Positions 430-50,800 of a DNA stretch of 64,000 nucleotides are shown piece by piece. The translations under genes were made by a program, and so were the position numbers. Below the pieces are notes generated by a model. It was not told the origin of the DNA, did not search any database, and was given only the letters and a program-made list of their open reading frames with translations. This DNA comes from a virus (Duplodnaviria > Heunggongvirae > Uroviricota > Caudoviricetes): positions 1 to 64,000 of the IMG/VR virus record IMGVR_UViG_3300046810_000041; one strand, 5' to 3'. Positions within the stretch are counted from its first letter, which is position 1, and every line of letters begins with the position of its first letter.

Positions 430-2706
430 ATGAAACAAAAATTAGTTGCATCTATCACTGAGCGTCTTCAAACTGAAATCAATCCTCGGAATCCGGTAAA
501 GTTCCTCAAAGAACTCGACGTTTCCGAAATGATCGACGCTGCCACGGTTGTCCTCTATACTTTCACACGTGGAGGACGATCGTCTGGAACTAAGGCAAGG
601 CAAATCCTGATGTCAGAAGTCGTGTGCGCAATTGGCCACGGCATCCGTAATCGAAATCGCCTCAAGAAGGACTCTGCGCTGGCTGCAAGGGCTGGTGCAT
701 TCATTCTCTGGTCCTTTGAGAATCTTGGTATCGTTCTGACCAAGATGGGTAAAGCCGACAACAAGCATGGCACCTTCATTGTTGAAGTGACTGCTGAAGA
801 AGCTCTGGTGCAGCTGTTCGAAGACATCGATATCAAGAAGATCGAGAAGCTTCCTTCGCTGACTCCATATGCACCCTGGACTTCGACCAAGCATGAAACT
901 GGTGCTAATATGGTCAAGACTGCTGATCGGGATGTTCTTGCAATTATCAAACCCGAGACGCATCCGATGGTGTATGAATGCTTGAACAAAGCACAACGTA
1001 CTGGCTGGAATGTCAACAAGGATATTTATGCGATCTTCACGTGGGCTCTCAGAAATAAAACGGATGCGTTTGCAGACATCTGGGAAATGCAGAATCCGGA
1101 AGCCAAGTCCTCAAAGGTACGGGAGGCAAATGCAGTGGGCGCAATTGCAAAGCGCTTCCTCGATGAGACGTTCTATCATCTCTACTATTATGACTTCCGT
1201 GGTCGCAAGTACCCGGCCACTGCTTACTTTCACGAACAAGGAACTGACGCGTCTAAGGGCTTGCTTCTCAGACAAGACAGCTTCCGTATCGGAGAGCACG
1301 GCTTCAACTGGCTCCTCATTTCCATTGCATCCAATTGGGCTGGAAGCGCTGGGCGCGAGGATGGTGCAAAGACCGACAAAATCCCGCTGAAAGATCGTGT
1401 ATGCTGGGCACTCGACAATAAGGAGATTCTGCTGTCGTATGCAGAGAACCCGAAGGTCAATCAGGGCTGGATGAAGGCGGATAAGCCTTGGCAGTTCCTG
1501 GCAGCATGCAATGAATGGATGAAGTTGGAGAAATGGCTTAACGATGGAGGCTGGAAAAGTGAAGATGGAAGGCTTGTACACATTCGAGACCAAGCTGATT
1601 ATGAGTCTCATCTTGAGTGCTTCATCGATGGCAGTAATAACGGCAGTCAGCATTTGTCTGCGCTCACCTTGGACGAAGTTACTGCTCCTCACGTTAATCT
1701 GGTTCCAAGTGATCTCCCTGGTGATCTGTATAAGTATGTTGCTGATCACGTATGGGAAAAGATTACTGATGAAGCTGAGGCAATGCTCCAAGCTCAGGTC
1801 CAGGAACTTGAGCGTGTAATCGACACTGTCACTGACCTGAAGACCCAGATTCAGCAGGCACCGATGAAGTCTGATCGTCGAGAAGAGCTGATCAAACAGA
1901 TTCAAGCCTACAAGCGAGAGAAGAAAGAAGTCATCGCGCAGGCTGCAGTAATCTTCTGGTATCGCGTCACTGATGCCAAACATCGTCGTAAGGTAGTGAA
2001 GCGTAATGTGATGACTCTTCCGTATGGTGGTACTGCGTATGGCCTGGGTCAGCAGCAGATCGATGATGCACGCAAGCACGGCATTGAGTCCCTGATGTCA
2101 ATGGAGCATGCTTGGGGCTCTTACATGGGCCGAGAGGTCTTCGAGGACTGCAAGAAGTCGCTTGAGAAGCCGATGCGTCTGTTGTCTGTGTTTGAGGCTG
2201 CAGGTGAGAAGGCTGGTGCTGAAGGTCGTTTCCTTAGCTGGACTGCACCAATCACCAACTTCCCGGTCGTTCAGCATTACGTGGAAGGCACTACCAAGAA
2301 GATTCACGTTCAATATGGCCCCGCTGTTGGAGAGCGGAGCAAGAGCACTGGATACTACGACAATGATCGACAACTGCACATCTGTGTCATCGAGCAATCG
2401 AAGCCTTCACCGAAGAAGCAATCTACGGGTGCCTCGCCAAATGCAATTCACAGTTTGGACGCTGCTCATCTTACTCTGTGTGTTAATCGTTGTGATTTCC
2501 CTGTCACTACTATTCACGATTCTTTCGGCTGCTTACTTGGTCATATGGCCGATCTGTTTCGTATTGTCCGCGAAACGTTCGTGGAGCTGTACAAATCTAA
2601 ACCGCTAGAAAAGCTGATGCAGGACATCGGTGGTGACATTAGCCAAGTTGAGATTGGTACTCTCGATCTGAACCTCATCCTGGAATCGGAGTATTGCTTT
2701 GCTTAA
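430..2706 (+). CDS. T7-like single-subunit DNA-dependent RNA polymerase (758 aa)
   Basis: Translation contains the DFRGR (T/DxxGR) motif, motif A DGSNNGSQH, motif B RKVVKRNVMTLPYGG and motif C IHDSFG. These are the hallmark catalytic motifs of T7 gene 1 RNAP. Confidence 0.9.
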   Translation: MKQKLVASITERLQTEINPRNPVKFLKELDVSEMIDAATVVLYTFTRGGRSSGTKARQILMSEVVCAIGHGIRNRNRLKKDSALAARAGAFILWSFENLGIVLTKMGKADNKHGTFIVEVTAEEALVQLFEDIDIKKIEKLPSLTPYAPWTSTKHETGANMVKTADRDVLAIIKPETHPMVYECLNKAQRTGWNVNKDIYAIFTWALRNKTDAFADIWEMQNPEAKSSKVREANAVGAIAKRFLDETFYHLYYYDFRGRKYPATAYFHEQGTDASKGLLLRQDSFRIGEHGFNWLLISIASNWAGSAGREDGAKTDKIPLKDRVCWALDNKEILLSYAENPKVNQGWMKADKPWQFLAACNEWMKLEKWLNDGGWKSEDGRLVHIRDQADYESHLECFIDGSNNGSQHLSALTLDEVTAPHVNLVPSDLPGDLYKYVADHVWEKITDEAEAMLQAQVQELERVIDTVTDLKTQIQQAPMKSDRREELIKQIQAYKREKKEVIAQAAVIFWYRVTDAKHRRKVVKRNVMTLPYGGTAYGLGQQQIDDARKHGIESLMSMEHAWGSYMGREVFEDCKKSLEKPMRLLSVFEAAGEKAGAEGRFLSWTAPITNFPVVQHYVEGTTKKIHVQYGPAVGERSKSTGYYDNDRQLHICVIEQSKPSPKKQSTGASPNAIHSLDAAHLTLCVNRCDFPVTTIHDSFGCLLGHMADLFRIVRETFVELYKSKPLEKLMQDIGGDISQVEIGTLDLNLILESEYCFA

Positions 2707-3921: not shown

Positions 3922-3942
3922 CCAACCCGTTAAATTAACCCT
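3922..3942 (+). promoter_or_regulatory. Putative phage-RNAP promoter, exact 21-mer CCAACCCGTTAAATTAACCCT (copy 1)
   Basis: Identical 21-mer present at 5 sites in the window plus one variant. It is flanked by the inverted repeat gggcggcc/ggccgccc and lies upstream of the SSB gene. Confidence 0.6.
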
Positions 3943-7774: not shown

Positions 7775-7795
7775 CCAACCCGTTAAATTAACCCT
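7775..7795 (+). promoter_or_regulatory. Putative phage-RNAP promoter, exact 21-mer (copy 2)
   Basis: Exact CCAACCCGTTAAATTAACCCT, flanked by the inverted repeat gccctca/tgagggc. It lies upstream of the lipoprotein gene. Confidence 0.6.
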
Positions 7796-18777: not shown

Positions 18778-19053
18778 ATGAACCGTGGAACCTCAAAGCA
18801 ACTGGTAGATACTCCGCGTGATGCTCTGGAACGCATCCTCCAGTTGTGCAATAATAGCAGTCAATATACCCGTCGTACGAGCTTCATCCATGAAATTGCA
18901 ATGCAAGGTCTGGGTATGACTGAATCTCAACGTAGCGTAAGGCATGAACGCTGTGAAGAGAAAAGGACTCGTCTTCTGGAGCTGCTGGAGACGAATACGC
19001 GAGGTGAAGCTCGTAAAATCATGCAGGGAGAGTTTGGTCATAACGTAGAATAA
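18778..19053 (+). CDS. Hypothetical protein (91 aa)
   Basis: ORF whose ATG overlaps the upstream TAA (TAAATG). Confidence 0.45.
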   Translation: MNRGTSKQLVDTPRDALERILQLCNNSSQYTRRTSFIHEIAMQGLGMTESQRSVRHERCEEKRTRLLELLETNTRGEARKIMQGEFGHNVE

Positions 19054-19139
19054 TCGTTAAAAGAGCGGTTATAAGGGTATCTTATATGAAGAATGTAAGA
19101 TATCCTTCAATCATTGTGTAGAATATACTGGAATAAATA

Positions 19140-23732: not shown

Positions 23733-23753
23733 CCAACCCGTTAAATTAACCCT
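23733..23753 (+). promoter_or_regulatory. Putative phage-RNAP promoter, exact 21-mer (copy 3, tandem pair)
   Basis: Exact CCAACCCGTTAAATTAACCCT followed by GAAAGGGAACGA. It is the first of two copies 64 bp apart. Confidence 0.6.
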
Positions 23754-23796: not shown

Positions 23797-23817
23797 CCAA
23801 CCCGTTAAATTAACCCT
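23797..23817 (+). promoter_or_regulatory. Putative phage-RNAP promoter, exact 21-mer (copy 4, tandem pair)
   Basis: Exact 21-mer with the same downstream GAAAGGGAACGA. It is the second unit of a roughly 64-bp tandem duplication upstream of the gene at 24004. Confidence 0.6.
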
Positions 23818-24003
23818 GAAAGGGAACGAGGAAGTTCGGCTGGCTTGCTGTCTCCAGGACGCTATGTCTTTTGGACTTCCTCACCTGAACACGCTTTAAC
23901 CTATACTCCGTAAAACTGCGGGTTTATAGGCATCTTATATGAAGAAGGCTCATAAGAGTTGACTTCGAATTCCATTACTTTTAAATTGAAACGAGAATAC
24001 ATC

Positions 24004-29171: not shown

Positions 29172-29192
29172 CCAACCCGTTAAATTAACCCT
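29172..29192 (+). promoter_or_regulatory. Putative phage-RNAP promoter, exact 21-mer (copy 5) with a leader homologous to the region downstream of copy 1
   Basis: Exact 21-mer. The downstream sequence CTAAGCGCCGCCTCCCCTAGAGGAAC... parallels 3943-3975 CTAAGGCCGCCCTCCCCAGAGGGAAT... Confidence 0.6.
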
Positions 29193-31284: not shown

Positions 31285-31305
31285 CCAACCCGTTAGATTA
31301 ACCCA
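31285..31305 (+). promoter_or_regulatory. Variant of the 21-mer promoter motif (CCAACCCGTTAGATTAACCCA, 2 mismatches)
   Basis: Lies between tRNA-Arg and the Trp-like tRNA. Confidence 0.3.
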
Positions 31306-31770: not shown

Positions 31771-31774
31771 CAGT

Positions 31775-32029: not shown

Positions 32030-32135
32030 AACATGTAACACGTACCGAATGGACCTCGAAGGAGGCTTGTATTGGTGTATAGTCAAGGTGAAGATCTTAC
32101 TATGCCGTCACTCTACGAAACAGAGTAAGAACATT

Positions 32136-32212: not shown

Positions 32213-32261
32213 AACATGGTCTGGAAACGACCCGGCAAGTGAAATGCTTGCAACAAACAAT

Positions 32262-32354
32262 GTATGTCAGCTGAATATTGGCTTAAGTCAGCCCGGTCTG
32301 TAACACCGGAGTCTCCTAGAGAGGGTTGGGGTTCGATTCCCTGGACATACACCA
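32262..32354 (+). tRNA. tRNA-Tyr (anticodon GTA), type II with long variable arm
   Basis: Perfect 7-bp acceptor gtatgtc/gacatac, D-stem ctga/tcag, anticodon stem ccggt/accgg with loop ctGTAac, variable arm tctc-cta-gaga, T-loop ttcgatt, CCA. Confidence 0.65.
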
Positions 32355-32754
32355 TCTACGCTTAGCACAGAACCGCAAGGCCAGCGGGCCACTGTGGAAG
32401 CTGATTGTGATAATTCACATGACTTTGCAGATTAGAAAGAAATCTGACCGATACCCATACCATCCATGGTGGAAGTGGTATTTGGAGGTGGCTCTACAAA
32501 CTAGTCTCATTCGGAAACTCCTATTAGCACGACGAACGGAAAGCCGAGATAGTTACGTGCGAAGCGTAGCGATGAGTATTAGAGAGCTCCCTGCCAAATA
32601 GTACTTCCTGTTGTTTAACTAAATGAAAGCTTCAAATGAGCTCTAAAACAATCCGTCGTCACCCGAAACCAATGCCTCAACCTGTATTCCGTCCTCGCCC
32701 TAAGTTTCTGGCCTGGGCTGTACAGAACATCTGCCGCACCTGGAGTAACATCAA

Positions 32755-32934
32755 ATGAACAACTTCATCTACTGGATCTCAGTCGGTTTGATGATTTTCT
32801 TTGTGCTCCGTAACAGTGCAAATAGCCCTCGCTCGAATGGTCTTAGTACTATTCTTGGGCTGCTTTTCGCGTTTGTCCCTTACATGAATACGATCGCAGT
32901 AGTGATCAACATTCTTCACTACAACAGGAAATAA
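32755..32934 (+). CDS. Small membrane peptide (59 aa), paralog of the next ORF
   Basis: Hydrophobic ORF MNNFIYWISVGLMIFFVLRNS... between tRNA genes. Confidence 0.3.
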   Translation: MNNFIYWISVGLMIFFVLRNSANSPRSNGLSTILGLLFAFVPYMNTIAVVINILHYNRK

Positions 32935-32936
32935 TC

Positions 32937-33098
32937 ATGTGGATTCTCTATTGGGTCTCTATGGTGGTTTGCCTCATCACTATCTTCCGTAATTCCAAAT
33001 ATCTAGGTGTTGATCGCTATTTCTTCTTTGCGATTATCCTCTCGCTTATTCCTGGTCTTAACACACTATTAGCCCTCTATGCTGTAGTGAGCGATTAA
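32937..33098 (+). CDS. Small membrane peptide (53 aa), paralog of the previous ORF
   Basis: MWILYWVSMVVCLITIFRNS... Shares the Y-W-hydrophobic-RNS architecture with 32755-32934. Confidence 0.3.
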   Translation: MWILYWVSMVVCLITIFRNSKYLGVDRYFFFAIILSLIPGLNTLLALYAVVSD

Positions 33099-33104
33099 CA
33101 ATAA

Positions 33105-33180
33105 GCCCTCTTAGCTCAGTTGGTAGAGCAGTTGATTTGTAATCATCTGGTCAGGGGTTCGAGTCCTCTAGAGGGCACCA
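33105..33180 (+). tRNA. tRNA-Thr (anticodon TGT)
   Basis: Perfect acceptor gccctct/agagggc, gctcagttggtagagc D-arm, anticodon loop ttTGTaa, T-arm agggg-ttcgagt-cctct, CCA. Confidence 0.7.
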
Positions 33181-33190
33181 AACAATCAGT

Positions 33191-33267
33191 TCTTCCATAG
33201 CTCAGTTGGTTAGAGCGCTGTCTTGATAAGGCAGAGGTCATAGGTTCAAGCCCTATTGGGAGTACCA
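33191..33267 (+). tRNA. tRNA-Ile (anticodon GAT)
   Basis: gctcagttggttagagc D-arm, anticodon stem ctgtc/ggcag with loop ttGATaa, T-arm atagg-ttcaagc-cctat, CCA. Positions 1-72 are a mismatch. Confidence 0.65.
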
Positions 33268-33273
33268 AACAAC

Positions 33274-33348
33274 GCGGGTGTAGTTTAATGGTAAAACAGT
33301 AGCCTTCCAAGCTTCGGTCGTAGGGTTCGATTCCCTCTTCCCGCTCCA
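33274..33348 (+). tRNA. tRNA-Gly (anticodon TCC)
   Basis: Acceptor gcgggtg/ttcccgc, short D-arm, anticodon stem gtagc/gcttc with loop cTTCCaa, T-arm taggg-ttcgatt-ccctc, CCA. Confidence 0.65.
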
Positions 33349-34293: not shown

Positions 34294-35622
34294 ATGCATA
34301 CCATTTTACATCCAGGTCAATCCGAGATTTATTCTGATCTCTTTATTGAAATGAATTGTAGGTATGCTGTGGCGGTGTGTAGCCGTGGATGGGGTAAATC
34401 CTATTTCGCGGCTGCATGTGCAACTACGGCTATCTTCGAGCTACTACAACTAGCTACTTACGTGCCGAACAAGATTGTATACATCATTGCACCAACGTAT
34501 GCTCAGGTGACTGACATCTATTACCCTCTTTTGGCCTATGAAATGGGTCTTGAGAATTACTGTATTCGCAGTAGTAAAGATGCAGGACGCTTCTGGTTCC
34601 CTAAAGGCGTAGAACTAAGACTTGTCTCTTACGAGGCAGTTGAGCGTTTACGTGGTACGGGTGCATACTTTGTTGTTATGGACGAGGTCCGAGATTGGAC
34701 CAAAGGCTCAGGCTTTAAAGAAGCTTGGGAATCTATCATTCAGCCTTGCATTAACACGCGTTGGTCTCGGAAACGAGCTAAACAGTTATTTGCCAAGTCT
34801 CCTGGTAGAGCCCTCTGTATTTCGACCCCTAAGGGTTACGACTACCTCTATGAAATGTACCACTTCGAAGAGTCAGACTCTGATTGGAAGTCTTACCATT
34901 TCGACTATCGATCTTCTCCATACTTGGATGAGGCCGAAATCGAGAAGGTAATGCATACGATCGATCCTCTGAAGTTCGCAAGAGAGTACAAGGCTTCATT
35001 TGAGGATTCTGGCAATAATGTCTTCTACTGTTTTAATAGGAAAGTCCATGTTCAGAAAGATGTTCCCGATCTCGTTGAGGGTGAAGATGTCCATATTGGC
35101 ATTGACTTCAACGTTGGCCTCCAGTGTTCCTCGGTTTTCGTCATTCGAGGAAATCAAGTACACTTCATTGATGAGCTCAAAGGGCACCCCGATACCGAGC
35201 AGCTCGCGATTGCAATCAAAGCACGCTACAAGGGACACAAAATCTTCGCATACCCAGATCCATCGGGTAGGTCACGGAAGACGTCGGCCCCGGTAGGTGT
35301 GACTGACTTCTCTATCTTGCGCTCTTATGGAATCATCTGTCTAGCTCACAAGAAAGCACCACCGATCGTTGATTCTGTGGCTGCTGTGAACAAGATGCTT
35401 AAGACTGCTGCGGGTGGAGTAAGTATTTATATTCATCCTCGTTGTGTTGGTGTGATTCAATCCCTTGAGCGTACTGCTTGGGTGGATAATAACGCCGATA
35501 CCGCAACGATCGATAAGAAAGAAGGCAATGAGCACTTCTCTGATGGTATCAGGTATGCAATTGAATTCCTGTTCCCGATCAAGGCTCACAAGAAAACTGT
35601 GGAAAGAGGCTTTGGCTTCTAA
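34294..35622 (+). CDS. Terminase large subunit
   Basis: Walker A CSRGWGKSYFAA and Walker B VVMDEVRDW, a downstream nuclease-type acidic block, and a size of 442 aa. Confidence 0.8.
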   Translation: MHTILHPGQSEIYSDLFIEMNCRYAVAVCSRGWGKSYFAAACATTAIFELLQLATYVPNKIVYIIAPTYAQVTDIYYPLLAYEMGLENYCIRSSKDAGRFWFPKGVELRLVSYEAVERLRGTGAYFVVMDEVRDWTKGSGFKEAWESIIQPCINTRWSRKRAKQLFAKSPGRALCISTPKGYDYLYEMYHFEESDSDWKSYHFDYRSSPYLDEAEIEKVMHTIDPLKFAREYKASFEDSGNNVFYCFNRKVHVQKDVPDLVEGEDVHIGIDFNVGLQCSSVFVIRGNQVHFIDELKGHPDTEQLAIAIKARYKGHKIFAYPDPSGRSRKTSAPVGVTDFSILRSYGIICLAHKKAPPIVDSVAAVNKMLKTAAGGVSIYIHPRCVGVIQSLERTAWVDNNADTATIDKKEGNEHFSDGIRYAIEFLFPIKAHKKTVERGFGF

Positions 35623-35647: not shown

Positions 35648-35953
35648 ATGACCGACCAAGTTCAAGCTCCTGTGCTGAATAAACCTGTTGTGGCAAATGC
35701 TGCAGTCAAACCTGCTGAACCTATTGTTCAAGCAAATGCAGAAGTTAAAGAGCCTCCGAAGGAAGTCCCTAAGGAAGCTGCTCAGAAGTATCGTGTGACG
35801 CCTGGTACTCTGCTGCCTGCTGATCTGATTCCCGCCAATTGGGTCATCGAGACTACCTCGGAAGAGAATGTCATCTATGCCCGTAATGGTGTGACCAACA
35901 AAGAATTCGTGGGTCCGAAGAAAGACCTGGGTCGCTACCTCCGGGGTGAATAA
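35648..35953 (+). CDS. Hypothetical protein (101 aa)
   Basis: ORF between TerL and the putative portal. Confidence 0.45.
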   Translation: MTDQVQAPVLNKPVVANAAVKPAEPIVQANAEVKEPPKEVPKEAAQKYRVTPGTLLPADLIPANWVIETTSEENVIYARNGVTNKEFVGPKKDLGRYLRGE

Positions 35954-37596
35954 TGATCGTTACCGTTCCTAAAGCGACAGACGGTGCGGAAAGTAAAAAG
36001 AGTGTAGCTGATCCTACAACCTCTTACCTTACTATGCTCCCTCTGTGGGGCAAAAGCAGGGCTGTATGCAATGGTGAACGGGCTGTAAAAGAGTATGATG
36101 ATATTCTTGATTTAGTCGGATTCACTAACCTGCTGATTCCGTTCTCGCCCTCGATGTCCCCTGAACAGTACCAATGGTACAAATCAGAAGCAGAACTTCC
36201 TGGTATTGTCTCTCAGTATGCTAAGGTAATTGTGGGGGGATTGCTCCGTAAGAAGCCTTCCCTCGAACTACCTGAAGATGCTCCTGAAGATGCAATGGAC
36301 TGGATCATGAACCAATTCGCACAAGATGGTTCTCCTTTGGTTAACTTCCTAGATCAAGCTCTCTGGGAAGAAATGCAGACTTCTCGCGCTTGGGTTTACA
36401 TTGACTACCCTGCTGTAGAAGATGCAAAAGCCAATGCGATGACAAAGGAAGACTTCCTGGAATTGAAGCCTTATCCGGTAATCTGGAATGCTGAGTCCAT
36501 TGTTAACTACCGTGTTGGTGTTAGCTCTGAGACTGGTAATCAAGAACTCAAAATGGTTATTGTGCGTAACTATGAAGAGGACTATAAGGAAGGTGAATAT
36601 CACCCTACTCTAGTCGATACTGTCTGGGTTCATGAACTCAAAGACAATAAGTATCAGATTACCAAGTACCAGAATAAATCTGGGAAGGCTGGTATTCCTG
36701 TAATCAATGGTGCTATCCAGCAGAATTACACTGAGTCTGCTTCTGGCTTCGAACAAGATGGTGAAATCATCTATCCGAAGATTCAGGGCGAGCCTATGAC
36801 TGTAATCCCTGCATGGCCTCTGAATGGTTCGATTGGAATGGTTGATCCTATTCTGAACGCACTGATCGATCGCGAGCTTAGCCTGTACAACAAGCTTTCT
36901 CGTCGTAATCACCTTCTGTATGGCGCATCTACGTATACTCCTTGGATTGCCTCGGATATGCCTGATGAAGACTTCGAGAAGGTAGTAGGTCGTGGACTTG
37001 GTTCCTGGATTCACATCCCTAGTGGTGATACAATTGGCGTCCTTGAGACTCCGACTGCAGCACTACAAGATATGGATCGTGCTATCTCTGCCACTCTTGA
37101 AGAAATGGCGAAGATGGGCATTCGTATGCTGTCTCCTGAAGTGGACCAATCTGGTATTGCTTTGGAGATTCGCAATGCAGCTCAGACTGCTCAACTTGGT
37201 ACGTTAAATACTAAGGTCAGCAATCAGATGTCTAGCATCATCGCTTTCATGCTCAACTGGCGGTATGGTACGGATTACAAACCAGCTGATGTCAAATTCA
37301 AGCTTTCGGATGACTTCAATCCTGCCCCTCTGGGTGCTGATTGGCTGCGTCTGATTACTGAATGGTACCAGGCAGGTCTGATTCCACGTACTGTGTGGCT
37401 GTCGATCATGAAACAGAACGATATCGTACCTCCGGAATACGACGACAAGGAAGGCCAGAAAGAAATTAATGGTGACCCTCTGGTTGTTACTCCAAGGGAA
37501 GATATGCAGTTCGCAGCTCAATTGCAGAAAGAAGTTACGGCTCAAAAGACCGGACAACCAACTGCAAAACCAGCTGTTCCACCAGCGAAGAAGTAA
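35953..37596 (+). CDS. Putative portal protein
   Basis: 547 aa, placed between the large terminase and the MuF-domain minor head protein, which is the canonical portal position in SPP1/lambda-like modules. Assignment by synteny and size only. Confidence 0.5.
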   Translation: MIVTVPKATDGAESKKSVADPTTSYLTMLPLWGKSRAVCNGERAVKEYDDILDLVGFTNLLIPFSPSMSPEQYQWYKSEAELPGIVSQYAKVIVGGLLRKKPSLELPEDAPEDAMDWIMNQFAQDGSPLVNFLDQALWEEMQTSRAWVYIDYPAVEDAKANAMTKEDFLELKPYPVIWNAESIVNYRVGVSSETGNQELKMVIVRNYEEDYKEGEYHPTLVDTVWVHELKDNKYQITKYQNKSGKAGIPVINGAIQQNYTESASGFEQDGEIIYPKIQGEPMTVIPAWPLNGSIGMVDPILNALIDRELSLYNKLSRRNHLLYGASTYTPWIASDMPDEDFEKVVGRGLGSWIHIPSGDTIGVLETPTAALQDMDRAISATLEEMAKMGIRMLSPEVDQSGIALEIRNAAQTAQLGTLNTKVSNQMSSIIAFMLNWRYGTDYKPADVKFKLSDDFNPAPLGADWLRLITEWYQAGLIPRTVWLSIMKQNDIVPPEYDDKEGQKEINGDPLVVTPREDMQFAAQLQKEVTAQKTGQPTAKPAVPPAKK

Positions 37597-37699: not shown

Positions 37700-40600
37700 A
37701 TGGCTGAGATTAATGCTAACACTGCCATCTATGACAAGTCCGTAGATCGATCAGCAATGATTCGATTCTATGAGGAACGTGTCGGCGGTAAAATCAAAGA
37801 GGTAATGAAAGGGCATGAGCTTGATGTGATGAAGCTTATTGCTAGCACTCCCAAGAATGATCCAAAGCTCCGTGAAGAGCTGGATAAACTCTTGATTAAG
37901 AATTATGGCAACATGCATGATATCTCGAAGCGTTCCTTGATGGATCTCATCTTCGATCAGACATCTTACATGGTGCAGAGCCTGACTAAAGCTATTGGTG
38001 ACATCTGGTCTGTCAATAAGCCTCAGTACAGGATTGCAGAAGAGATTGCTCTCAATCGTCCTCTGTATAACGATGCTACCCTACTCCAAGGATGGCAAGG
38101 TGTATCGATCGCTGAAAGAAAACGCCTCGAAGCAGTAATCCGTAAAGGTATTGCTCAAGGTCAATCAGAAGCTGAGATTGCTTTGGAAGTCCGTAAGGGT
38201 AATGTGTTCAACATTTCCAGAACTCAATCGCTTGGTCTTGTGCGTACTGCCATGACTAGTGTTGTGGTTCAAACAGATCATGAAGTCTACAAAGCAAATG
38301 AAAAGGCCTTACAAGGTTGGCAGTATATTGCTGTGCTCGATAGTCGTACTACTCCTATTTGTGCTCATCGTGATGGTACAATCTACGATATTAGCGATAC
38401 TGAACATCTACCACCTTCGCACTGGAACTGCCGATCGACTACTGTCCCTGTTGTCAAGCACTGGTCTGACTTACTTAAGCTTGATGGTGTGGCACAGATT
38501 CGTAGGAAGAACCTGGAGAGCCTGACAGATAAGCAGAAAGCGTACTATGATGGTTTGACTCCTTCGAAAGAGTCTTATCAAGATTGGCTTTCTCGTCAGC
38601 CTACACTTGTTCAGTTGAAGCATCTTGGTGATTACGCCAAAGTAGAAGCCTTCCAACAAGGTAAACTGACTGTAGATAAATTTACAAACGATGATGGTAA
38701 ATCCATCGGTATTAAAGAACTGAGACAGTTGACCAATGAGACCTTCACGGCTCCTGGTGATACTACTCGATTCGGTAATGCCAAAGAAAAGCTGGATGCT
38801 ATTCGCTTAGGTGTGAATCGTCCAGAAGACCTGATCAACAACCCTGATCTGCAGGCTGCACTCAAGGAATACTACTTGCTTCAAGCAGGTGATCTTGATG
38901 GTACTCTGTCGCTCACTAGTTATCGTGGTACGCTTGTTGGTAACAAGAAAGCTACTAAGACTCGTGTTCTTAACTCTCCTCCAAGGGAAGAGAATTTGAA
39001 GTACAATCCTGTGACTGGTCGTTATGATGATTCTCGTATGTATCAGCCTTCTGCTGAGGCACTTGAGAACTCTCTGCGTCTGGTTAATGAAGCTGCCTCT
39101 TTGAAAGACGAGGATAAAGTCTTCATTAATAACTTTATTGCAGGTATGGAGAACTTTGTAGGCACTAACGAAAGAGCTGTGATTACAGAAAATCTGCGTA
39201 TTGTGTTTACTCGATTCCGCGATAACAAAGAGCCTTGGGCTAATTTCAAAGCAGTCCTGAACTCTCAGATGAAGTTTGACGTGATGAACGTTTCTGACTA
39301 TATCGAGACTCAGCTGCGTAAAGACGGTAATCTCCTGACTCGTTTGAAGCAAGACAACTACATTGACCCTGTCCTTGGTGTTGTTCAGCTTGACGATCTT
39401 GAGAAGACCTTCATTGACAACATTAAGGAAAAGAATGCTTGGGAAGATAAGACCGCCCCTAAGATCGCGAAAGAGCTTCGTGGACTTCTTGATCTGGACA
39501 TTCCTCTGCGAATTAGGACACGCCTTAGTAATGATGATCTCGAAGCTTTTTATCTTCGTTTTGCTAACCGCTTGTCTGTTGCTGATACTCCTGACCGTGA
39601 CCAACTGGCAGTCTCTTTGGGACGGGACCTTTACAATTCCGCTAACTGGCGTGGTGACAGACGTGCATGGTTCGACTTAGGTTCTAAGCTGCTGAATAGC
39701 CCTCGGGTGAAAAGCTACTGGAAGCAAGAGACAACGATGACTACTAAGCGTCGTATGAAGAGTAGACTTTCGGGTCAATACTTCGGTCCTTACTATGACT
39801 CGTTCACTGTCAATATTCGTATTGTCGATCCAAGGATTCAGCGCTATGCACAACTTACCCGAAAAGTCGATGTTGGACTCCGATTGGGAGTCTTTAATGA
39901 GCGTAATAAGCTCTACATCCGACCCGGCTTTAAGACTTACTGGACTAAAGGTATTCTTGGCTACGAGGACACAAGAATTCCCATTACCTCCACGAATTCT
40001 TTCTCAGATTTCCCAGAAGAACTGGTTGACAACAATCTGTCCGACGCTCTTAACTGGGCATCAACCACTAAGTACAAAGTAGACCCTGAGTTCCACGACT
40101 TCATCGAGAAATTGCTGATGTTCGAGGACGATAAGGGTAAAGCTCAGTACTATCATGGTTTGAATCAGTATCGTAGTTACATCGCTGAACGTGGTGATGC
40201 CTATGAACGATTTAAAGCTATGAAGTGGCTTCGGGATAAAGAAATTGGATTTGCTAATCATGCATTCGTAGACCATCGTGCTCGTATTTACGACCGTGGT
40301 ATGATTAGCCCTCAGTCTGGTGAAACATTCCGTCCATTCCTTAATACGAGTGAGCCTGTGAATTTCTCCCCAGAAGAGTTTGACAACTTGCAGGATCAGA
40401 TAGGTGCTTTCTTAGGAGGTCTCTCAGACCACTTTGAAGGAAGGTACAATTCCCTGTCTATCCTTGGTCGTCAGAAGATCGCTGAGATGTGGAGAGATGA
40501 ACTGGTCAAGATCGGTAACCATATCCTGAGAAATAAACCTGGAGATATTCGTGCTGTCCTGGAGTCTGACTTCCTGGCACATATCGAAGGTGAAGAGCAA

Positions 40601-42619
40601 GGTAAAGCTATGCGCTTCGCTCTGGAAATGGCAAAGATCGATAAGTATCTGAAAGAGAAGGCTAGTGTAGTCTTCCAAGAACCTGACCTGAGCTTTATTC
40701 GTGATGGTGATGAGTACATTGACATTAACAAAGTACACCAGTTGGCTCACTTGAAGCCGATTGAGAAAGTTAATGTGGATGATGTCAACATCTTCGTGGA
40801 TGAAACTCTTTCAGAGCACTCCGCAAGGAAGCTCCCTAAAGGTGATGAGAAACGAATTAAGAAAGCAGACTTGGATGCACCTGTGGTTGTGGAGTTAGAT
40901 GAAGGCCAATACGGTCAACAAGACTTCAAATACCACTGGCTCGATGGTTACCACCGCTTAGTGAAAGCAAAGCGTGATGGCATCAAAGAGATTCAAGTAC
41001 AAGTGCTCTCTGCAAAAGATGTGAAGAAGGCCCGAGTGCAGCACTACGATCAGTTGACTGAAGGTAATCCCAAAGAGATTCTGTGGGGTAAGCCGATCAA
41101 CCCGTATTCGCCGCTTAACTTGAGGCACCTCAACAACTACAAAATCAGTGTCGCTCTGGAGCAGGATGCTTCCTCCTCTGGTGCACAGATTATTGCTCTG
41201 ACTACGAAGAACAAACAGCTCGCCAATCTGTCTAATGTTATTCCAACTAACCAGAAGCAACGTCTGTATGACGAGATTGCAGCAGCTACCTACCAAGATC
41301 CTCGTTTCCAAGAACTGAATAAGCGATTGGGACTCTCCGAGAAGGATCTACGTAAGGCTGCTAAAGCTCAGAACATGGTTACTTTCTATGGTGCTGGTGA
41401 ACGTACTGGTATTCTGAATGTGGAAGGTAAGCTCGCGAAAGCCCTTAGCAAACAACCTGGAACAATGGTGGTTAAGGCTTCTGACCGAGACAAAGTACTT
41501 AACGAAATCTCGGCTCGTATGGCTCGATATGAAAAATTCGATCCAGACACATATGAAGAACTTAAGGCTCTTCGTCAAGACGTGCGTGACATCTTCAACA
41601 AAGGCCAACAGCCTAGTGATGACATCATGTACCAATTGTATTTCTTAGAGCCTAAAACGAGAGACCTGGTGGATAAGATGACGCGTCAGTACGACAATGT
41701 TGTTACTCCGCAGGACTTCTCAACAATTGCAAAGATTATGAGCGAGAATCTTTCAATCCAAGTCCCAATCCTCAAAGACTTCACCAGATTCTTCGGAAGA
41801 CTGGCGGAAGACTTCGTAACAAACGCTAAACCTGGGGATAGCAAGAAAGATCTTGCAGAAGTACTCAAAGAGAAAGCCTTTGGTCAGCGCAAAGGACAGC
41901 CTCCAGAACTCCTTAACCGGATTCCGGGATGGCATCCAGGAAGTCCTTTGTCTGAAATGCTCTATGGCGTGCGTGAGAAGAAACTACCTAAGAAATGGAC
42001 TAACATTCCTTGGGTTAACTTTGATGGTAAGACAATTGAACAGAACTTCACTCAAGTGTTCGAGGAGCGTTTGACTTACAAGGACAAGAATGGTAAGTGG
42101 GTGACTAATATCCTGCAAGTACCACAGAAAACTGATCCCACATTCTGGGATGAGCTTGTGAATAAGAGCGACCTCTTCAATGATATTGTTGATGCTCAGA
42201 AAGCAAGAACTGCATTTGCGGTTAACGGTAATCACTCAAATGATGCTGTGATCGTTAAGCGTTTCCATCTGTGGGGCAAAGAGAAGGATATTCCGACTTC
42301 TACTATCCATGATGCGTTCTTTACAAATGCTGCTAAGCTGCTTGAGGCTAGAAGCGCACTCAGAGAAATCTATGGTGACATCGTTACGACCAATCCTGTT
42401 CAAAATACTCTCGATGAGATGTATAAACGAGGTTTACCAAAAGAGCTCTACAAGAAATACTTAAATGAAGCTATCGACATTGGCCTGATACCTGTGGTTG
42501 GAAGGTCGCGTGTTGGCGGTAAGCTCATTACCGAGGATGACATCCTCACGAAGGAAGATATTCTAGCGCCTATCCCTAAAGGGTTCAAAGAGAACCTTGG
42601 ATGGTATGGCATTGGATGA
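37700..42619 (+). CDS. Giant minor-capsid fusion protein: N-terminal Mu-F/SPP1-gp7-like head domain, central region, C-terminal T7/N4-like single-subunit RNA polymerase domain with a ParB-like insertion (candidate virion RNAP)
   Basis: MuF motif ...TTPICAHRDGTIYDISDTEHLPPSHWNCRSTTVP (about 38340-38445). RNAP motifs: DHRARIYDRG...SPQSG (T/DxxGR region, 40271), motif A QDASSSGAQ (41165), motif B KAQNMVTFYGAG (41363-41392), a HSND block, and motif C IHDAFF (42308). ParB-like WLDGYHRLVKA at 40937-40969. Confidence 0.8.
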   Translation: MAEINANTAIYDKSVDRSAMIRFYEERVGGKIKEVMKGHELDVMKLIASTPKNDPKLREELDKLLIKNYGNMHDISKRSLMDLIFDQTSYMVQSLTKAIGDIWSVNKPQYRIAEEIALNRPLYNDATLLQGWQGVSIAERKRLEAVIRKGIAQGQSEAEIALEVRKGNVFNISRTQSLGLVRTAMTSVVVQTDHEVYKANEKALQGWQYIAVLDSRTTPICAHRDGTIYDISDTEHLPPSHWNCRSTTVPVVKHWSDLLKLDGVAQIRRKNLESLTDKQKAYYDGLTPSKESYQDWLSRQPTLVQLKHLGDYAKVEAFQQGKLTVDKFTNDDGKSIGIKELRQLTNETFTAPGDTTRFGNAKEKLDAIRLGVNRPEDLINNPDLQAALKEYYLLQAGDLDGTLSLTSYRGTLVGNKKATKTRVLNSPPREENLKYNPVTGRYDDSRMYQPSAEALENSLRLVNEAASLKDEDKVFINNFIAGMENFVGTNERAVITENLRIVFTRFRDNKEPWANFKAVLNSQMKFDVMNVSDYIETQLRKDGNLLTRLKQDNYIDPVLGVVQLDDLEKTFIDNIKEKNAWEDKTAPKIAKELRGLLDLDIPLRIRTRLSNDDLEAFYLRFANRLSVADTPDRDQLAVSLGRDLYNSANWRGDRRAWFDLGSKLLNSPRVKSYWKQETTMTTKRRMKSRLSGQYFGPYYDSFTVNIRIVDPRIQRYAQLTRKVDVGLRLGVFNERNKLYIRPGFKTYWTKGILGYEDTRIPITSTNSFSDFPEELVDNNLSDALNWASTTKYKVDPEFHDFIEKLLMFEDDKGKAQYYHGLNQYRSYIAERGDAYERFKAMKWLRDKEIGFANHAFVDHRARIYDRGMISPQSGETFRPFLNTSEPVNFSPEEFDNLQDQIGAFLGGLSDHFEGRYNSLSILGRQKIAEMWRDELVKIGNHILRNKPGDIRAVLESDFLAHIEGEEQGKAMRFALEMAKIDKYLKEKASVVFQEPDLSFIRDGDEYIDINKVHQLAHLKPIEKVNVDDVNIFVDETLSEHSARKLPKGDEKRIKKADLDAPVVVELDEGQYGQQDFKYHWLDGYHRLVKAKRDGIKEIQVQVLSAKDVKKARVQHYDQLTEGNPKEILWGKPINPYSPLNLRHLNNYKISVALEQDASSSGAQIIALTTKNKQLANLSNVIPTNQKQRLYDEIAAATYQDPRFQELNKRLGLSEKDLRKAAKAQNMVTFYGAGERTGILNVEGKLAKALSKQPGTMVVKASDRDKVLNEISARMARYEKFDPDTYEELKALRQDVRDIFNKGQQPSDDIMYQLYFLEPKTRDLVDKMTRQYDNVVTPQDFSTIAKIMSENLSIQVPILKDFTRFFGRLAEDFVTNAKPGDSKKDLAEVLKEKAFGQRKGQPPELLNRIPGWHPGSPLSEMLYGVREKKLPKKWTNIPWVNFDGKTIEQNFTQVFEERLTYKDKNGKWVTNILQVPQKTDPTFWDELVNKSDLFNDIVDAQKARTAFAVNGNHSNDAVIVKRFHLWGKEKDIPTSTIHDAFFTNAAKLLEARSALREIYGDIVTTNPVQNTLDEMYKRGLPKELYKKYLNEAIDIGLIPVVGRSRVGGKLITEDDILTKEDILAPIPKGFKENLGWYGIG

Positions 42620-42688: not shown

Positions 42689-43369
42689 ATGAACACGACT
42701 GATAAATTCCTTGAAGATGGAGTTACACCGAATCCGCATTACATCGACCCGAATCAAGAGACAGAAGAACAGCGTATTGAACGCCTGGCTCAAGAACGTG
42801 CTGATGCAAAGCTGAAAGAGATCAAAGCCAAGCTGGATAATGCGTACTCTGCGCGTGATGCTGCTCTGGCCGAAGCGGAGAAGCTGAAGCTGAAAGAACA
42901 AGAAGCACTCAAGAAGCAACTGGAAGAACAAGGTAAGTACAAGGAATTGTATGAACTTCAACTCCAGGAACAGAAAGATCGTGCTGCTCAACTGGAAGCA
43001 GAGAAAGCTGCTCTGTCTGCTCGTAATACGGAACTTACTCGCGATAATATGCTCCGTGATGCACTGAAGGGTTTCGACTTCCGCAATGATCGTGCTGCCG
43101 AAATGGCGTATCGTGAAATTGTTGGTGAACTGATTCAAGATGCCAATGGCAATTGGATTCACAAGTCGGGCGTCTCTATCAAAGACTTCGCTGTAGCATT
43201 CTCCAAGGACGATACTCAATCGTTCCTGTTCAAAGCAAAACAAAATGGCGGTGGCGGTACCAGCAATACTAATCACAAACCGAATGTGAATGCTGGTAAG
43301 AAACTCACCGAAATGTCCCAGAAGGAAGTCCTTGACGGGATTGCCAAAGGGACAATCAAAACCCGATAA
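42689..43369 (+). CDS. Putative scaffolding protein
   Basis: 226 aa, strongly coiled-coil and charged (...KLKEIKAKLDNAYSARDAALAEAEKLKLKEQEALKKQLEEQ...), immediately upstream of the capsid gene. Confidence 0.5.
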   Translation: MNTTDKFLEDGVTPNPHYIDPNQETEEQRIERLAQERADAKLKEIKAKLDNAYSARDAALAEAEKLKLKEQEALKKQLEEQGKYKELYELQLQEQKDRAAQLEAEKAALSARNTELTRDNMLRDALKGFDFRNDRAAEMAYREIVGELIQDANGNWIHKSGVSIKDFAVAFSKDDTQSFLFKAKQNGGGGTSNTNHKPNVNAGKKLTEMSQKEVLDGIAKGTIKTR

Positions 43370-43386: not shown

Positions 43387-44568
43387 ATGGATATGACCAC
43401 TGGTCTGGCAGGCGCTTCTAATTACGTCCTGCAATCGGCTATCACTGCTTATGCAGATGAAGCTTACACTAATGCTCGCAAACTGTCGGGCACTGGCATC
43501 GCTGGTACTGATGCTCGTATCGATCCTTCGACTGAGACCTTCATTGGTCAAATGCGCTGGTTCAAGCCTCTGAATCCTGTGATCAACGTCGCATCGCTGA
43601 CTGATCCGACCAAAGGTACGCCGACTACCTACGCTTCGGAATTCGCGACCTACGTGAAATCGACTCGTACCCACGGTGCAGAGAAGGTCAATCTGCAGCA
43701 CATCGTTACTCAAGACGATGGTCTGGCTAAGGTTGGTCGTGACTTCGCTGAGACTCGTGCTCAAGATGAACACAATGCAATGCTGGCCATCATGAAAGGT
43801 GTCGCAATCTCGGAAGCCCTGATGGGTGCTGCCGCTGGTTCGGGCACTGGTGGTCTGGGTGGTCAAACCTTCGACAACGATCCGACTGACAAGCGTTACG
43901 GCTTCTATGTCGATCTGGGTACAAGCTCGCTGGTCAATGCTGCTACGGCTTCGAGCCAAGGCGCACAGCGTGCAGAACAGTTCCTGAATGCTCTGGGAAT
44001 GGGCTGGAAGGACTACGAGCCTGAATACGCTTACCTGGTGACTTCGCCGCAGATGGTCGCTATGCTGCGTTCGGCTAACCTGGTCGATCAAACCAAAGTG
44101 TCGGAAGCGAACATCATGTTCGAAACCATCTTTGGTGGTAAGTTCCGTCTGATCCAGACTCGCGCTACTCAGTCGCTGTCGGCTGGTCAAATGTCGAAGA
44201 TCAATTCGGGCAATGGTGTCGATATCGTCGGTACCAAGACTTCGTTCATCGTTCTGCCTGGCGCTATCGCTATGGCTGGCCTGAACATCGAAGTCCCGAC
44301 CGAGATTACTCGCGATGGTTCGACCTACAACGGTGGTGGTTCGACCAACATCTGGCATCGTTGGGGCTATGTGGCTCACCCTTCGGGCTACAACTGGAAA
44401 GGCGCTGACGACAAGTTCGCTTCGGACGCTGACTACCAGAAGGCTCTGACTGGTGGTACTGCACTGAACCTGATCGACAGCGTTGTGGATAACACCACTG
44501 TCGGTACCTGGGAACGTAAGACGAACTCGGCTCTGGGTCTGTCGATCCTGCCTGTGTTCCACTCGTAA
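43387..44568 (+). CDS. Putative major capsid protein
   Basis: 393 aa, positioned after the scaffold and before the head-tail genes. Assignment by synteny and size. Confidence 0.55.
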   Translation: MDMTTGLAGASNYVLQSAITAYADEAYTNARKLSGTGIAGTDARIDPSTETFIGQMRWFKPLNPVINVASLTDPTKGTPTTYASEFATYVKSTRTHGAEKVNLQHIVTQDDGLAKVGRDFAETRAQDEHNAMLAIMKGVAISEALMGAAAGSGTGGLGGQTFDNDPTDKRYGFYVDLGTSSLVNAATASSQGAQRAEQFLNALGMGWKDYEPEYAYLVTSPQMVAMLRSANLVDQTKVSEANIMFETIFGGKFRLIQTRATQSLSAGQMSKINSGNGVDIVGTKTSFIVLPGAIAMAGLNIEVPTEITRDGSTYNGGGSTNIWHRWGYVAHPSGYNWKGADDKFASDADYQKALTGGTALNLIDSVVDNTTVGTWERKTNSALGLSILPVFHS

Positions 44569-47820: not shown

Positions 47821-50800
47821 ATGTCAGGCGTAGCAATTGACGTACAAACAAGGTCTGACTCAGCGGAACGCGACCTTAAGAAAATAAACGAGTCGTTGAC
47901 AGGGATCCAAAAGACAACCGAAGGTGTGACTAAATCTTTGGCTAATATGGCCAAATCGATTGCACTATCTGCTGCATCGGTTGGTGGATTCGCTGCTATC
48001 GTACAAATCTCAGATCAGTTTACCAACCTCGGCAATAAGATTGCTCTGGTCACTGGTCGTACTAATGACATGGTCTATGCACAGACTAAGCTGCTGGACA
48101 TCACGGAAAGAACTCGTGGTTCCATCGATGATGCAGCTATGGCATTCGGTACATTTGGTAAAGCGCTGAAAGGCTCTGGTGCTTCTGTTGACTCTCTGCT
48201 CAAGGCTACTGAAGCTGTGCAGAAGGCTGTGGCAATCTCTGGCTCGTCCGCTGAGTCTGCTCAGGCCGCAATCATCCAGCTTGGCCAGGGTCTTAGCTCT
48301 GGTGTGCTGCGTGGTGAAGAGTTCAACTCGATCATGGAACAGACGCCCCGTATCGCCGTAGCTCTGGCAGACAGCCTGAATGTGTCTCTGGGTAACCTGC
48401 GTGCTATGGCCGCCGAAGGTAAGCTGACTTCGGATGTGGTGTTCAAAGGTCTGTTAAGCCAGACTAATCAGCTGAACAAAGAATTTGCTCTGCTTGCTCC
48501 TACTATGAGCCAAGGTGTACGTGCTAGTAAACAAGCCGTATCTGAGTTCGTAAATGAACTCTTAATTGGTCTTGGCGCAAGCGAGGCTGTAGGTGGTGTA
48601 ACAATGAAGATGGCTTCGGCTATTCGTGATCGTGCTAAGACAATCGCTGTCGATGCTGCAATCTTCATGGCTAACCTGCGAATGATGCTGGCCAACATTT
48701 CTGTGATTGGTAAACCGATCATCGACCTGTTCAAAGCAATCGGTACTCAAATCAAAGCTGCATTCCCTTCTTTCTGGATTTCTCGTACTCTGACGGGTGA
48801 TCTGGAATACGCTCTCCGTAAGATCGACCTTATGTTCGGTGGTACTCTGGAGATTATGGAGAAAGATGCAGAACACTTCTGGGACGACTTCCTGACAATT
48901 GACAGCCCTGTAGAGAAGGCTGTTAAGAAACTTAAACGTCTGACTCCTACTGAATGGTTCCACGAAGGTGTCCATAGTGGTGAGCTGAAAGCATTCTTCA
49001 GTACAGAAATGATGTATCTGTATGCTGATGCTTTGCGTGACCTTGCTACTGCCGTTGCTGACAATAGTAATAGCATGTACGCTTCGTACCGTGACTTCGG
49101 TCGTAAGATCACTGGTGTCTTCAAAGATGTTCAGATGTATTTCGGTCTCATTCCAGATACGCTGATTCGTATGCGAGTTGGTGCAGTAGATGCACTGATG
49201 TGGACTGTTGCACAATTGATCCGTGGCTTTACCGAGCTGGGAATCAAGGTGTATGACATCCGTCGTTACGTAAGTGAGACTCTGGGTGACACATATGTGG
49301 GTGTTGTGAATGCATTGAAAGATGTGTTTATGAACGCACCACGAATGCTCTTCAATGGTATCAAATCTGTGTTCGAGTATCTGGTCCGTGTAGCTGTTAA
49401 TACCGCTCAGATTATTGAGGACGCATGGAACAACAAGATTTATGGACCTATGGCTCTTGTCATTATGGGCATCCAAAAGATTGCTCGATTGATGAATGGT
49501 CTGGGTGAACAGAATCGTGCTGCTGAATTCTTCAAGACAGTTATCGCAATGTCGGTACGTATGGCTCAGGAAGCTGGTCGTGCTATTCAAGAATTTAGTG
49601 TAAAGATCATTCAGTACTTCTTCGAAATCTGGGATGCTGTTATTGGCCACTCCTGGTGGACTGATACTGTGGAGAGTGTGATCAACACCTCTGCTAGCCT
49701 GCTGTCTGATGTTGCAGGCCCTTTGACTAAGTTCTCCAAGTTTGTTGTAGGTCTCTTCAAGGATATCTGGAACAAGACGACTAATGGAGAAGGCTTCGCT
49801 GCTGTGGCTGATGCTATCGTTGCTGGTGTGGATAACATGGCAACCAACATTCGTCCAGGTTTTGCCAAGTTTAAGAAGACTGTTGTCGATGGTTATAAGT
49901 CGCTGGCTCAAGTCAGTACCTTCACGAATCCGCTGAAGAGCGTAGCTGGTTGGTATACTGGTAAGGTTGTAAAGCGCGAAATCTCGTATGACGTGTCTTG
50001 GGAACCGAGTGCAATGCAGAAGATGCTGCACAACTTTGATGTGATGACTTTCCAAGTGATGTTCAAGACTGCAATGATGGTCGACAAAGCTGGTAAGGCA
50101 ATCCATAAGTTCTGTGCTTATGTCATCGCTGAGTTCCGTGAAGTGTGGGATGCTGTTATCGGCCACTCTTGGTGGACTGATACGATCGATGGTGTGGTGG
50201 ATCAATCGAATAGCTTGATCAAGCGTACTAAAGATGCATTCAGTACTTTCAAGAACATGGTTGCTGACACATTCGATGCTCTGGCAGGCGCTGCAGGTAT
50301 GAAAACTACCTTCGCTAGTAGTCTCCAAGGACTCGGTCAACTGTTCGGTATCGTGGCTAACGACTTCAGTGATAAACTGGTAGCGGGTCTGGAAGTATTC
50401 AAAGACGAAATGCCACAAATCCTTAAGGCTGTCGGTATTGCTGCTGCTGGTTTTGCTGCACTGCTGTTACCTCTGGGTCCGTTTAAGAAAGCTGTTGTCT
50501 TTGCAATTGTTGATTCGCTCATCACTGCTTCGACACTGGTTTCTGAGAAGTTCTCGGAAGGTGTGTTCGGTGCTAGCTTCACCTTAGGTGCTGGTCGCGC
50601 AATCGGTCATGTAATCGCTTCTGTGGTTGCAAACTTCATTGCTGATCTTCCACAAATGCTGAATGCAATCGTAGGTCTTGTAAGCGGTTTTATTGAAGGT
50701 ATTACTAGCGGTCTTGCTTCGAAGATTCCGGTTATCGGTACTCTGATTGCTAAAGTCTTTGATGTAATTAACTTTACAGGATTGACTGGACCTTTAGGTA

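Follow-up and report, generated by a model that had tools for sequence, protein, structure and literature searches.

A phage gene joining a MuF-type minor head protein to a T7-type RNA polymerase: a candidate virion-packaged, injected enzyme

We analysed a stretch of 64,000 nt of tailed-phage DNA (Caudoviricetes; positions 1 to 64,000 of IMG/VR record IMGVR_UViG_3300046810_000041), which is referred to below as the window. The gene considered here lies at 37700..42619 on the + strand, starts with ATG and consists of a single uninterrupted open reading frame (ORF) of 1639 amino acids (aa); a putative Shine-Dalgarno sequence, AAGAGG, is located 8 nt 5' of the start codon. A preliminary description, made from the sequence alone, had read this ORF as a minor head protein of the MuF/SPP1-gp7 type fused to a T7/N4-like RNA polymerase (RNAP); the ORF and all the MuF and RNAP motifs quoted there are present, in the stated order. 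A protein identical to the predicted product (P0001) was found in public metagenomes, and the ORF is continuous in an independent Logan assembly as well.

Only two domains were significant in the Pfam scan of the fusion protein: Phage_Mu_F (PF04233) at aa 143-248 (E=3e-16, 60.6 bits versus a cut-off of 29.6) and RNA_pol (PF00940; E=8.4e-12, 45.1 bits versus a cut-off of 22). In PHROGs, the head morphogenesis family phrog_241 matched aa 55-360 (E=3.2e-60) and the RNA polymerase family phrog_414 matched the motif A-B region (E=4e-20). Judged by these scores, neither assignment is a chance resemblance. The first 360 residues form a minor head protein domain of the MuF/SPP1-gp7 type, with the PHROG match at 37862..38779 and the Pfam core at 38126-38443 (both + strand). 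The MuF signature C..RDG...PP(S/L)HWNCRS, here CAHRDGTIYDISDTEHLPPSHWNCRSTTVP, occupies 38360..38449 (aa 221-250, + strand) and is kept in 17 distant members of the family described below. A family-conserved linker without a recognisable domain (no Pfam match; 38780..39016, aa 361-439, + strand) leads to the polymerase.

Residues 440-1639 (39017..42616, + strand) are a complete T7-type single-subunit DNA-dependent RNAP composed of an N-terminal domain, thumb, palm and fingers, with all catalytic motifs present. All motifs that follow are on the + strand. The T/DxxGR block at 40271..40321 reads DHRARIYDRG (aa 858-867) and ISPQSG (aa 869-874); it was aligned by hidden Markov model (HMM) to T7 DWRGRVYAVSMFNPQG, and relatives carry D.RGR.Y at this place. 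Motif A, DASSSGAQ, with the catalytic D1156, is at 41165..41188 (aa 1156-1163); its DAS is kept in distant homologues. Motif B, KAQNMVTFYGAG (K1222, Y1230 and G1231), is at 41363..41398 (aa 1222-1233) with a conserved K...YG; the spacing from K1222 to Y1230 is the same as between K631 and Y639 of T7. The block NGNHSNDA at 42224..42247 (aa 1509-1516) contains H1512, the equivalent of T7 H784, and motif C, IHDAFF, with the catalytic D1538, is at 42305..42322 (aa 1536-1541), ~100 aa before the C-terminus. Thus, the hallmark residues of T7-like RNAPs in the fusion protein are D1156, D1538, K1222, Y1230-G1231, D858-R862 and H1512. With these features, the enzyme looks active.

Sequence searches against solved structures were weak. 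The C-terminal 1039 aa had zero phmmer matches among PDB sequences; a profile of the fusion family reached T7 RNAP marginally (E 0.04-0.07), with convincing local alignments of DHRARIY on DWRGRVY, NGNHSNDA on NFVHSQDG (H784) and IHDAF on IHDSF (D812). Therefore, we built a family alignment (A1) and predicted the structure of aa 440-1639 (pLDDT, the predicted local distance difference test, 80.6; pTM, the predicted template modelling score, 0.74), and the fold search settled the identity. Foldseek matched the predicted structure to T7 and mitochondrial RNAPs with E of ~1e-14 and probability 1.0, in alignments of >1100 columns that hence cover the N-terminal domain of RNAP. Together with the motif alignments, the model therefore identifies the enzyme as an RNA polymerase and not as a DNA polymerase, with a Pol I-like right-hand fold and the RNAP-specific N-terminal domain. 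Of the earlier label 'T7/N4-like', the T7 part stands; by predicted structure, T7 and mitochondrial RNAPs resemble the enzyme more closely than does the N4 virion RNAP (vRNAP). An unexpected PDB match of the family profile was the Pyrococcus protein PH1932, a putative transcription regulator (E=2e-4), which aligned within the RNAP N-terminal domain (fusion aa ~690-820, A1 profile positions 677-808).

The C-terminal part had initially been taken as continuous RNAP. This is not the case: a domain of ~150 aa (aa ~988-1138; 40661..41113, + strand) is inserted between the T/DxxGR block and motif A. Alone, the inserted domain had no Pfam match and no PDB sequence match, and its identification as a ParB/sulfiredoxin (Srx)-fold domain came from structure prediction only; the predicted structure has the ParB N-domain fold including a nucleotide-binding motif of the DGxHR type (DGYHR, aa 1082-1086). 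The insert may bind nucleotide or DNA and may be an optional cargo or accessory module. Most members of the family have no insert at this site, while P0064, P0104, P0106 and P0109 have other domains there (the alternatives being a GNAT-like domain scoring below the Pfam cut-off, a domain with a GHSRG motif and a ~125-aa domain without assigned family). Different domains at an identical site indicate an insertion hot-spot. The inserts recall polyvalent virion proteins, which accumulate effector domains and have MuF and domains of the ParB type as hubs (PMC5512222).

The fusion is not confined to the window. A search with its C-terminal 1020 aa among 5.8 billion proteins produced 398 matches; nearly all of the top 120 of these carry both PF04233 and PF00940, with lengths of 1400-1765 aa, on contigs of up to ~80 kb. 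Both motif A and motif C are conserved in these close homologues (120/120 each, motif A letter-identical). With phmmer against 1.84 billion cluster representatives (50% identity), we found 169 clusters at E<=0.001, 82 of them at E<=1e-30. Full-length matches checked among the 169 (Pfam on 6, motif alignment on 17) were all members of the fusion family: at 23-37% identity, the six had the N-terminal MuF domain and the 17 kept the MuF signature, both catalytic aspartates and the K...YG of motif B. Of the aligned members, only the four most distant do not keep the T/DxxGR block; the aspartate of motif C, with H, Y or F as the preceding residue, is retained by every member examined. Down to ~25% identity, the family thus retains both catalytic aspartates. 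With these residues, the significant RNAP-family match and the gene position, the refuting checks that the preliminary description had named, so far as they can be made computationally, came out in favour of its reading. In IMG/VR, the close subfamily alone numbers at least 413 contigs. Among 185,579 species genomes, we found two fusion loci, both in one metagenome-assembled genome of a gammaproteobacterium with a 74-kb scaffold; a single genome with a phage-sized scaffold fits strictly lytic phages. Taken together, the comparisons describe a large family in which the fusion is the rule and which evidently is under strong purifying selection.

Full-length relatives were found in only 4 of 50,697 GenBank phage records: EBPR siphovirus 1 (55% identity), DSS3_VP1 (two records) and DSS3_PM1 (28%). 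GenBank labels of the relatives are 'head protein', 'minor head protein-like' and 'head morphogenesis'. In culture, the family is represented solely by the roseophages DSS3_VP1 and DSS3_PM1, which grow on Ruegeria pomeroyi; the DSS3_VP1 orthologue carries all five polymerase motifs. The window phage shares a collinear set of at least 20 genes with DSS3_VP1 and is, by these comparisons, distantly related to the Naomviridae DSS3_VP1 and DSS3_PM1. The initial impression that a MuF-RNAP fusion is unfamiliar stands in one respect: we found no description of it, or of an RNA polymerase as MuF cargo, in the openly readable literature (subscription-only papers were outside this scope), and the sole paper with both MuF and virion-RNAP terms in full text (PMC5512222) does not describe the combination. 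It does not stand in another, as the family is large, has cultured members and has been annotated as head proteins.

The orthologue in EBPR siphovirus 1 (L001, JF412302) is split inside motif B (KAAKAQNMV / TFYGAGERTG) by an interruption of ~950 nt at 11179-12126, which carries an ORF for an HNH endonuclease. The Rfam search gave a group I intron at this place with E=1.4e-8 and 40.5 bits, below the 50-bit cut-off. The gene appears in GenBank as three coding sequences (head protein, HNH and hypothetical), an annotation explained by a group I intron. Homing introns typically sit in essential catalytic sites.

The fusion gene lies between the genes for portal and scaffold, as the preliminary description had placed it. 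The portal gene (35953..37596, + strand; phrog_145, E=5.7e-57; DUF4055) is directly upstream, and the large terminase gene (34294-35622) precedes it; directly downstream is the scaffold gene (42689..43369, + strand; phrog_206, E=2.9e-13) followed by the major head protein gene (43387..44568, + strand; phrog_247, E=9.8e-19). The same order of portal, fusion, scaffold and capsid genes is present in DSS3_VP1 and in two metagenomic relatives (L008 and L010). A tape measure gene for 2916 aa is found further downstream (47821-56571); its length would imply an unusually long tail. Tape measures of relatives have at least 1656 aa (2048 aa in L010).

The separate T7-like RNAP gene reported earlier at 430..2706 (+ strand, 758 aa) is real (PF00940, E=1.1e-64) and is a candidate for a non-virion polymerase. 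Its best phage match is the RNAP of DSS3_VP1 (34% identity). When used as a query in IMG/VR, this free-standing RNAP matched two short contigs only; in one of them (L007) the enzyme is 53% identical. The L007 match, at 4269-7189, spans 2921 nt versus 2277 nt in the window, which suggests an insertion or an intron in the L007 gene too. The two polymerases of the window are alike at the motif level only: in the hhalign comparison of the fusion family profile with the free RNAP, the probability was 3% and motif A alone was aligned. The two enzymes are therefore not recent duplicates, and an origin as recent paralogues was rejected. In each of the phages checked (the window phage, DSS3_VP1 and DSS3_PM1), a free RNAP accompanies the fusion, so the two-polymerase set is not an accident of one genome.

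Other genes of the replication side include a Toprim primase-helicase gene (11890-13602); an ORF for a SegE-type GIY-YIG homing endonuclease (10989-11645) between this gene and the 5'-3' exonuclease gene; and unusual accessory genes for an SPFH/Band-7 protein (7846-8637), a DHH/DHHA1 phosphoesterase (22461-23297) and a cREC_REC protein, with a cyclic-phosphate processing receiver domain (27266-27772). The replication block is separated from the packaging genes by nine tRNA genes (Arg, Trp, Asn, Gln, Pro, Tyr, Thr, Ile and Gly; 31193-33348).

Three classes of repeated regulatory-like elements were identified in the window and in L005, a contig identical to the window where the two overlap and reaching upstream of the window start. 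Class B is a 21-mer, CCAACCCGTTAAATTAACCCT, with six copies (0 expected), all intergenic and all on the + strand: 3922..3942, 7775..7795, 23733..23753, 23797..23817, 29172..29192 and 31285..31305. The last copy is inside the tRNA cluster and is the last one before the head and tail genes; a scan with a position weight matrix (PWM) found none in the head and tail region (34-64 kb). The PWM scores of the six copies are 32-36 versus 16 for the next best site. Relatives have near-identical copies next to the fusion gene (L008 11627 and 11737, L006 3269 and L001 13500). In DSS3_VP1, the analogue is a 17-mer, ATAGGGTGCGTTAAAGA, with eight copies, two of them directly upstream of the portal gene. This behaviour is that of a probable T7-type promoter used, we propose, by the free RNAP, and it would place the fusion gene among the late genes.

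Class C has the core GG(C/T)ATCT(T)ATA(A/T)TGA preceded by an upstream block TGCG(G/C) at a fixed N9 distance. The window phage has four copies: two upstream of the window (core at L005 5534 and 6843, bipartite motif at 5518 and 6827) and two within it, both on the + strand, at 19050..19093 (...GCGG-N9-GGTATCTTATATGAA, core at 19079) and 23903..23946 (core at 23932). The copy at L005 6843 heads a block of small genes preceding the free RNAP gene. Related motifs were found in L007 (550 and 2132) and in the DSS3_VP1 record (35808, 36255 and 67792); in the window phage and DSS3_VP1 alike, class C stands at the beginning of the small-gene region, which is presumed to be early. That the core is kept between phages whose free RNAPs share only ~34% identity (their fusions ~28%) suggests that a phage enzyme reads it, with the fusion RNAP as the most obvious choice.

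Class A consists of three 54-nt elements between the first small genes (L005 7198-7251, 7458-7511 and 7894-7947), located 1.6-2.4 kb upstream of the window start and upstream of the free RNAP gene. Each has two hairpins (stems of 7-8 bp and 5 bp) with compensatory changes in the first stem. The double hairpins recall the hairpin promoters of N4; RNA processing or termination signals are equally possible. Sites similar to the sigma-70 consensus are not enriched in the small-gene region (10 found versus 12.3 expected), which weakens a sigma-70 explanation of the early region. Runs of 12-17 T are present at ~60-135, 24881-24900 and 28904-28923 of the window. The first of them, situated shortly before the free RNAP gene, follows a 21-bp hairpin and resembles a strong terminator.

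We think it fairly probable that the gene encodes a virion RNAP which is injected and starts early transcription; packaging, injection and early transcription are what we infer from the MuF/gp7 family and from N4. In the proposed sequence of events, the MuF domain would recruit a few copies of the protein to the procapsid portal, and the polymerase would be packaged beside the DNA. At infection, the fusion protein would leave the head with the DNA through the portal and the long tail, probably unfolded; N4 vRNAP, too, is assumed to pass unfolded during injection. The injected polymerase would then start transcription of the incoming genome without host RNAP. The free T7-like RNAP would be among its early products, or these products would permit expression of this enzyme, which in turn would transcribe the replication genes from the six class B promoters and the head and tail genes by read-through. 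The fusion gene itself would be expressed late. The regulatory motifs fit such a two-polymerase cascade without proving it.

More tentatively, we extend this proposal to a whole clade of lytic long-tailed phages, large and globally distributed and including the Naomviridae with deoxyuridine (dU) in their DNA, in which a MuF-borne RNAP would read class C motifs, act independently of host RNAP and smuggle in variable accessory enzymes (ParB/Srx, GNAT-like and others) by way of the insertion hot-spot.

Several observations weigh against the proposed injection and early transcription. The assignment of promoter classes to the two polymerases is guesswork. Class C is found twice in the replication region (19079 and 23932) as well, and it contains TATAAT-like hexamers, so that host RNAP could use the motif. 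An extended -10-like sequence, TGTTATAAT (TGnTATAAT-like, read by eye), follows the terminator-like element 5' of the free RNAP gene. This gene could thus be transcribed by the host enzyme, as in T7, and an injected polymerase would therefore be less necessary. A folded polymerase core of ~130 kDa and the MuF domain must pass the tail tube of a siphovirus, which would require the unfolding and refolding of a MuF cargo of such size. Finally, neither of two papers on DSS3_VP1 mentions an RNA polymerase, and one of them contains no proteomics of virions.

A different role after injection is unlikely, in our view, and has some arguments on its side. The fusion protein could serve mainly in pulling the genome into the cell by transcription, or in making replication primers, with the second complete RNAP of the phage doing all gene expression. 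T7 RNAP and mitochondrial RNAP make primers at origins, and the closest structural relatives of the fusion polymerase include the mitochondrial enzymes, which also prime replication. For phage P23-45, coupling of vRNAP transcription to DNA translocation has been proposed by its authors (PMC10770324). However, the phage has its own Toprim primase-helicase, which lowers the need for priming by an RNAP, and DNA pulling is compatible with early expression, making it more a refinement of injection with early transcription than a rival to it.

It is likewise improbable that the polymerase acts only in the producing cell, as a late enzyme either tethered to the portal or procapsid or released from MuF by proteolysis, and is then left undelivered or carried as an inert passenger. 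The gene is in the late head operon and has no promoter-like motif of its own; the late region at 34-64 kb, lacking class B promoters, may need another enzyme. N4 and T7-like systems use different polymerases for different gene classes. A late polymerase, however, needs no covalent link to a portal-binding head protein, yet the link is kept in all full-length members checked, down to ~25% identity. Release from MuF is not favoured by the head module, where no prohead protease was matched in Pfam or PHROGs among the six proteins scanned, and MuF fusions of other phages have been interpreted as delivered effectors (PMC5512222).

We find it very hard to see the polymerase part as an inactive relic that serves only to bind DNA or as a structural protein inside the head. 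Among the domains associated with MuF, some are inactive, such as PBECR of Mu gpF, which is predicted to be so (PMC5512222), and the fusion polymerase is very divergent from canonical T7-like RNAPs, to the point of having no PDB match by phmmer. Conservation across the family of both catalytic aspartates, motif B lysine and tyrosine, the T/DxxGR block and the histidine block speaks to the contrary, as do the identity of motif A in all 120 close homologues and the homing intron targeting motif B. An assembly error or frameshift joining a gp7-like gene to an RNAP gene, for which the three coding sequences annotated in EBPR siphovirus 1 were the only support found, can be dismissed as already refuted, given the group I intron that accounts for that split and the recurrence of the intact ORF in the independent Logan assembly and in hundreds of contigs from many samples.

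What would an injected MuF-RNAP mean? Virion-delivered RNAPs are known from few lineages (N4-like phages, crAss-like phages, jumbo phages and P23-45), and each discovery changed the view of early phage transcription and host takeover. If our proposal is true, ordinary-sized siphoviruses have a separate delivery route for a T7-type enzyme; it would be a further independent virion-RNAP route beside the four listed, and the first by way of a head-portal adaptor. The fusion is common in environmental phages and has been overlooked, as the public annotations examined give a head protein only; 'head morphogenesis' genes of this family should carry an RNA polymerase label too. The model is testable in the cultured members, DSS3_VP1 and DSS3_PM1 on R. 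pomeroyi. Since promoter recognition by the host depends on thymine, dU-containing DNA would give a phage a reason to bring its own polymerase. A compact, self-delivering, promoter-specific RNAP with a permissive insertion site could also be of use in engineering, with the candidate early and middle promoter motifs as starting points for orthogonal transcription systems.

Among known systems, N4 provides the functional model. It injects a T7-like vRNAP for early transcription; this protein, gp50, has ~3500 aa, with a region for injection at the N-terminus and one for encapsidation, containing a zincin-like peptidase, at the C-terminus, and N4-like virion RNAPs are confined to N4-like phages (PMC5512222). 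In contrast, the fusion protein has 1639 aa, an N-terminal MuF carrier, no metallopeptidase/encapsidation region and no HExxH motif. With MuF and RNA_pol as the only Pfam domains, an N4-type architecture was rejected. N4 is also a podovirus, whereas the window phage would have a long tail with a 2916-aa tape measure. Arguably, the fusion protein works like gp50, at half the size and outside the gp50 family.

The closest concept is that of Thermus phage P23-45, which also combines a long tail, an RNAP fused to a structural protein and a second, non-virion RNAP. Its gp96 is a virion RNAP fused to the tape measure and transcribes pre-early genes including the gene for the non-virion RNAP; the vRNAP fusions listed in the same paper are those of crAss-like and N4-related phages only (PMC10770324). 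The P23-45 enzymes are of the two-barrel type with a tape-measure carrier in the tail, while the window phage has a T7-type enzyme with a head-protein carrier at the portal. The vRNAPs of crAss-like phage phi14:2 (gp66) and of jumbo phages phiKZ and AR9 are also packaged in virions and used for early transcription; they have two-barrel folds (single or multisubunit) and other packaging routes than the fusion. AR9 reportedly has both a dU genome and a packaged RNAP. The fusion-orthologue carrier DSS3_VP1 resembles it in having dU in place of thymidine in its DNA (PMC8323127). A homologue of the DSS3_VP1 dCMP/dCTP deaminase was not found at E<1e-5 in the 64-kb window, which is a part of the genome; nor was a homologue of the HD phosphatase found in the window, if the gene lies in the compared part of the DSS3_VP1 genome.

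T7 and mitochondrial RNAPs have the same fold as the fusion polymerase and the same motifs in the same order, at ~10-17% identity; the fusion enzyme differs from them in being joined to a head protein and in having the insertion hot-spot before motif A. On the head side, MuF/gp7 proteins are components of the heads of portal-terminase phages, and MuF has repeatedly been fused to C-terminal enzymes thought to be injected, such as RNases, ADP-ribosyltransferases (ARTs), RelA/SpoT, phosphoribosyltransferases (PRTases) and kinases (PMC5512222). Like SPP1 gp7 and Mu gpF, the fusion protein matches the MuF family above the cut-off and its gene follows the portal gene; like polyvalent proteins and MuF-cargo fusions, it combines MuF with enzymatic domains among late virion genes. 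Its cargo of ~1200 aa is far larger than typical toxin domains and would be an enzyme of takeover rather than a toxin. Thus, on every feature that could be tested computationally, the fusion protein is a member of both the MuF and the T7-like RNAP families, and it adds a variant to the known virion RNAPs and MuF-cargo fusions, without being a system of a new category.

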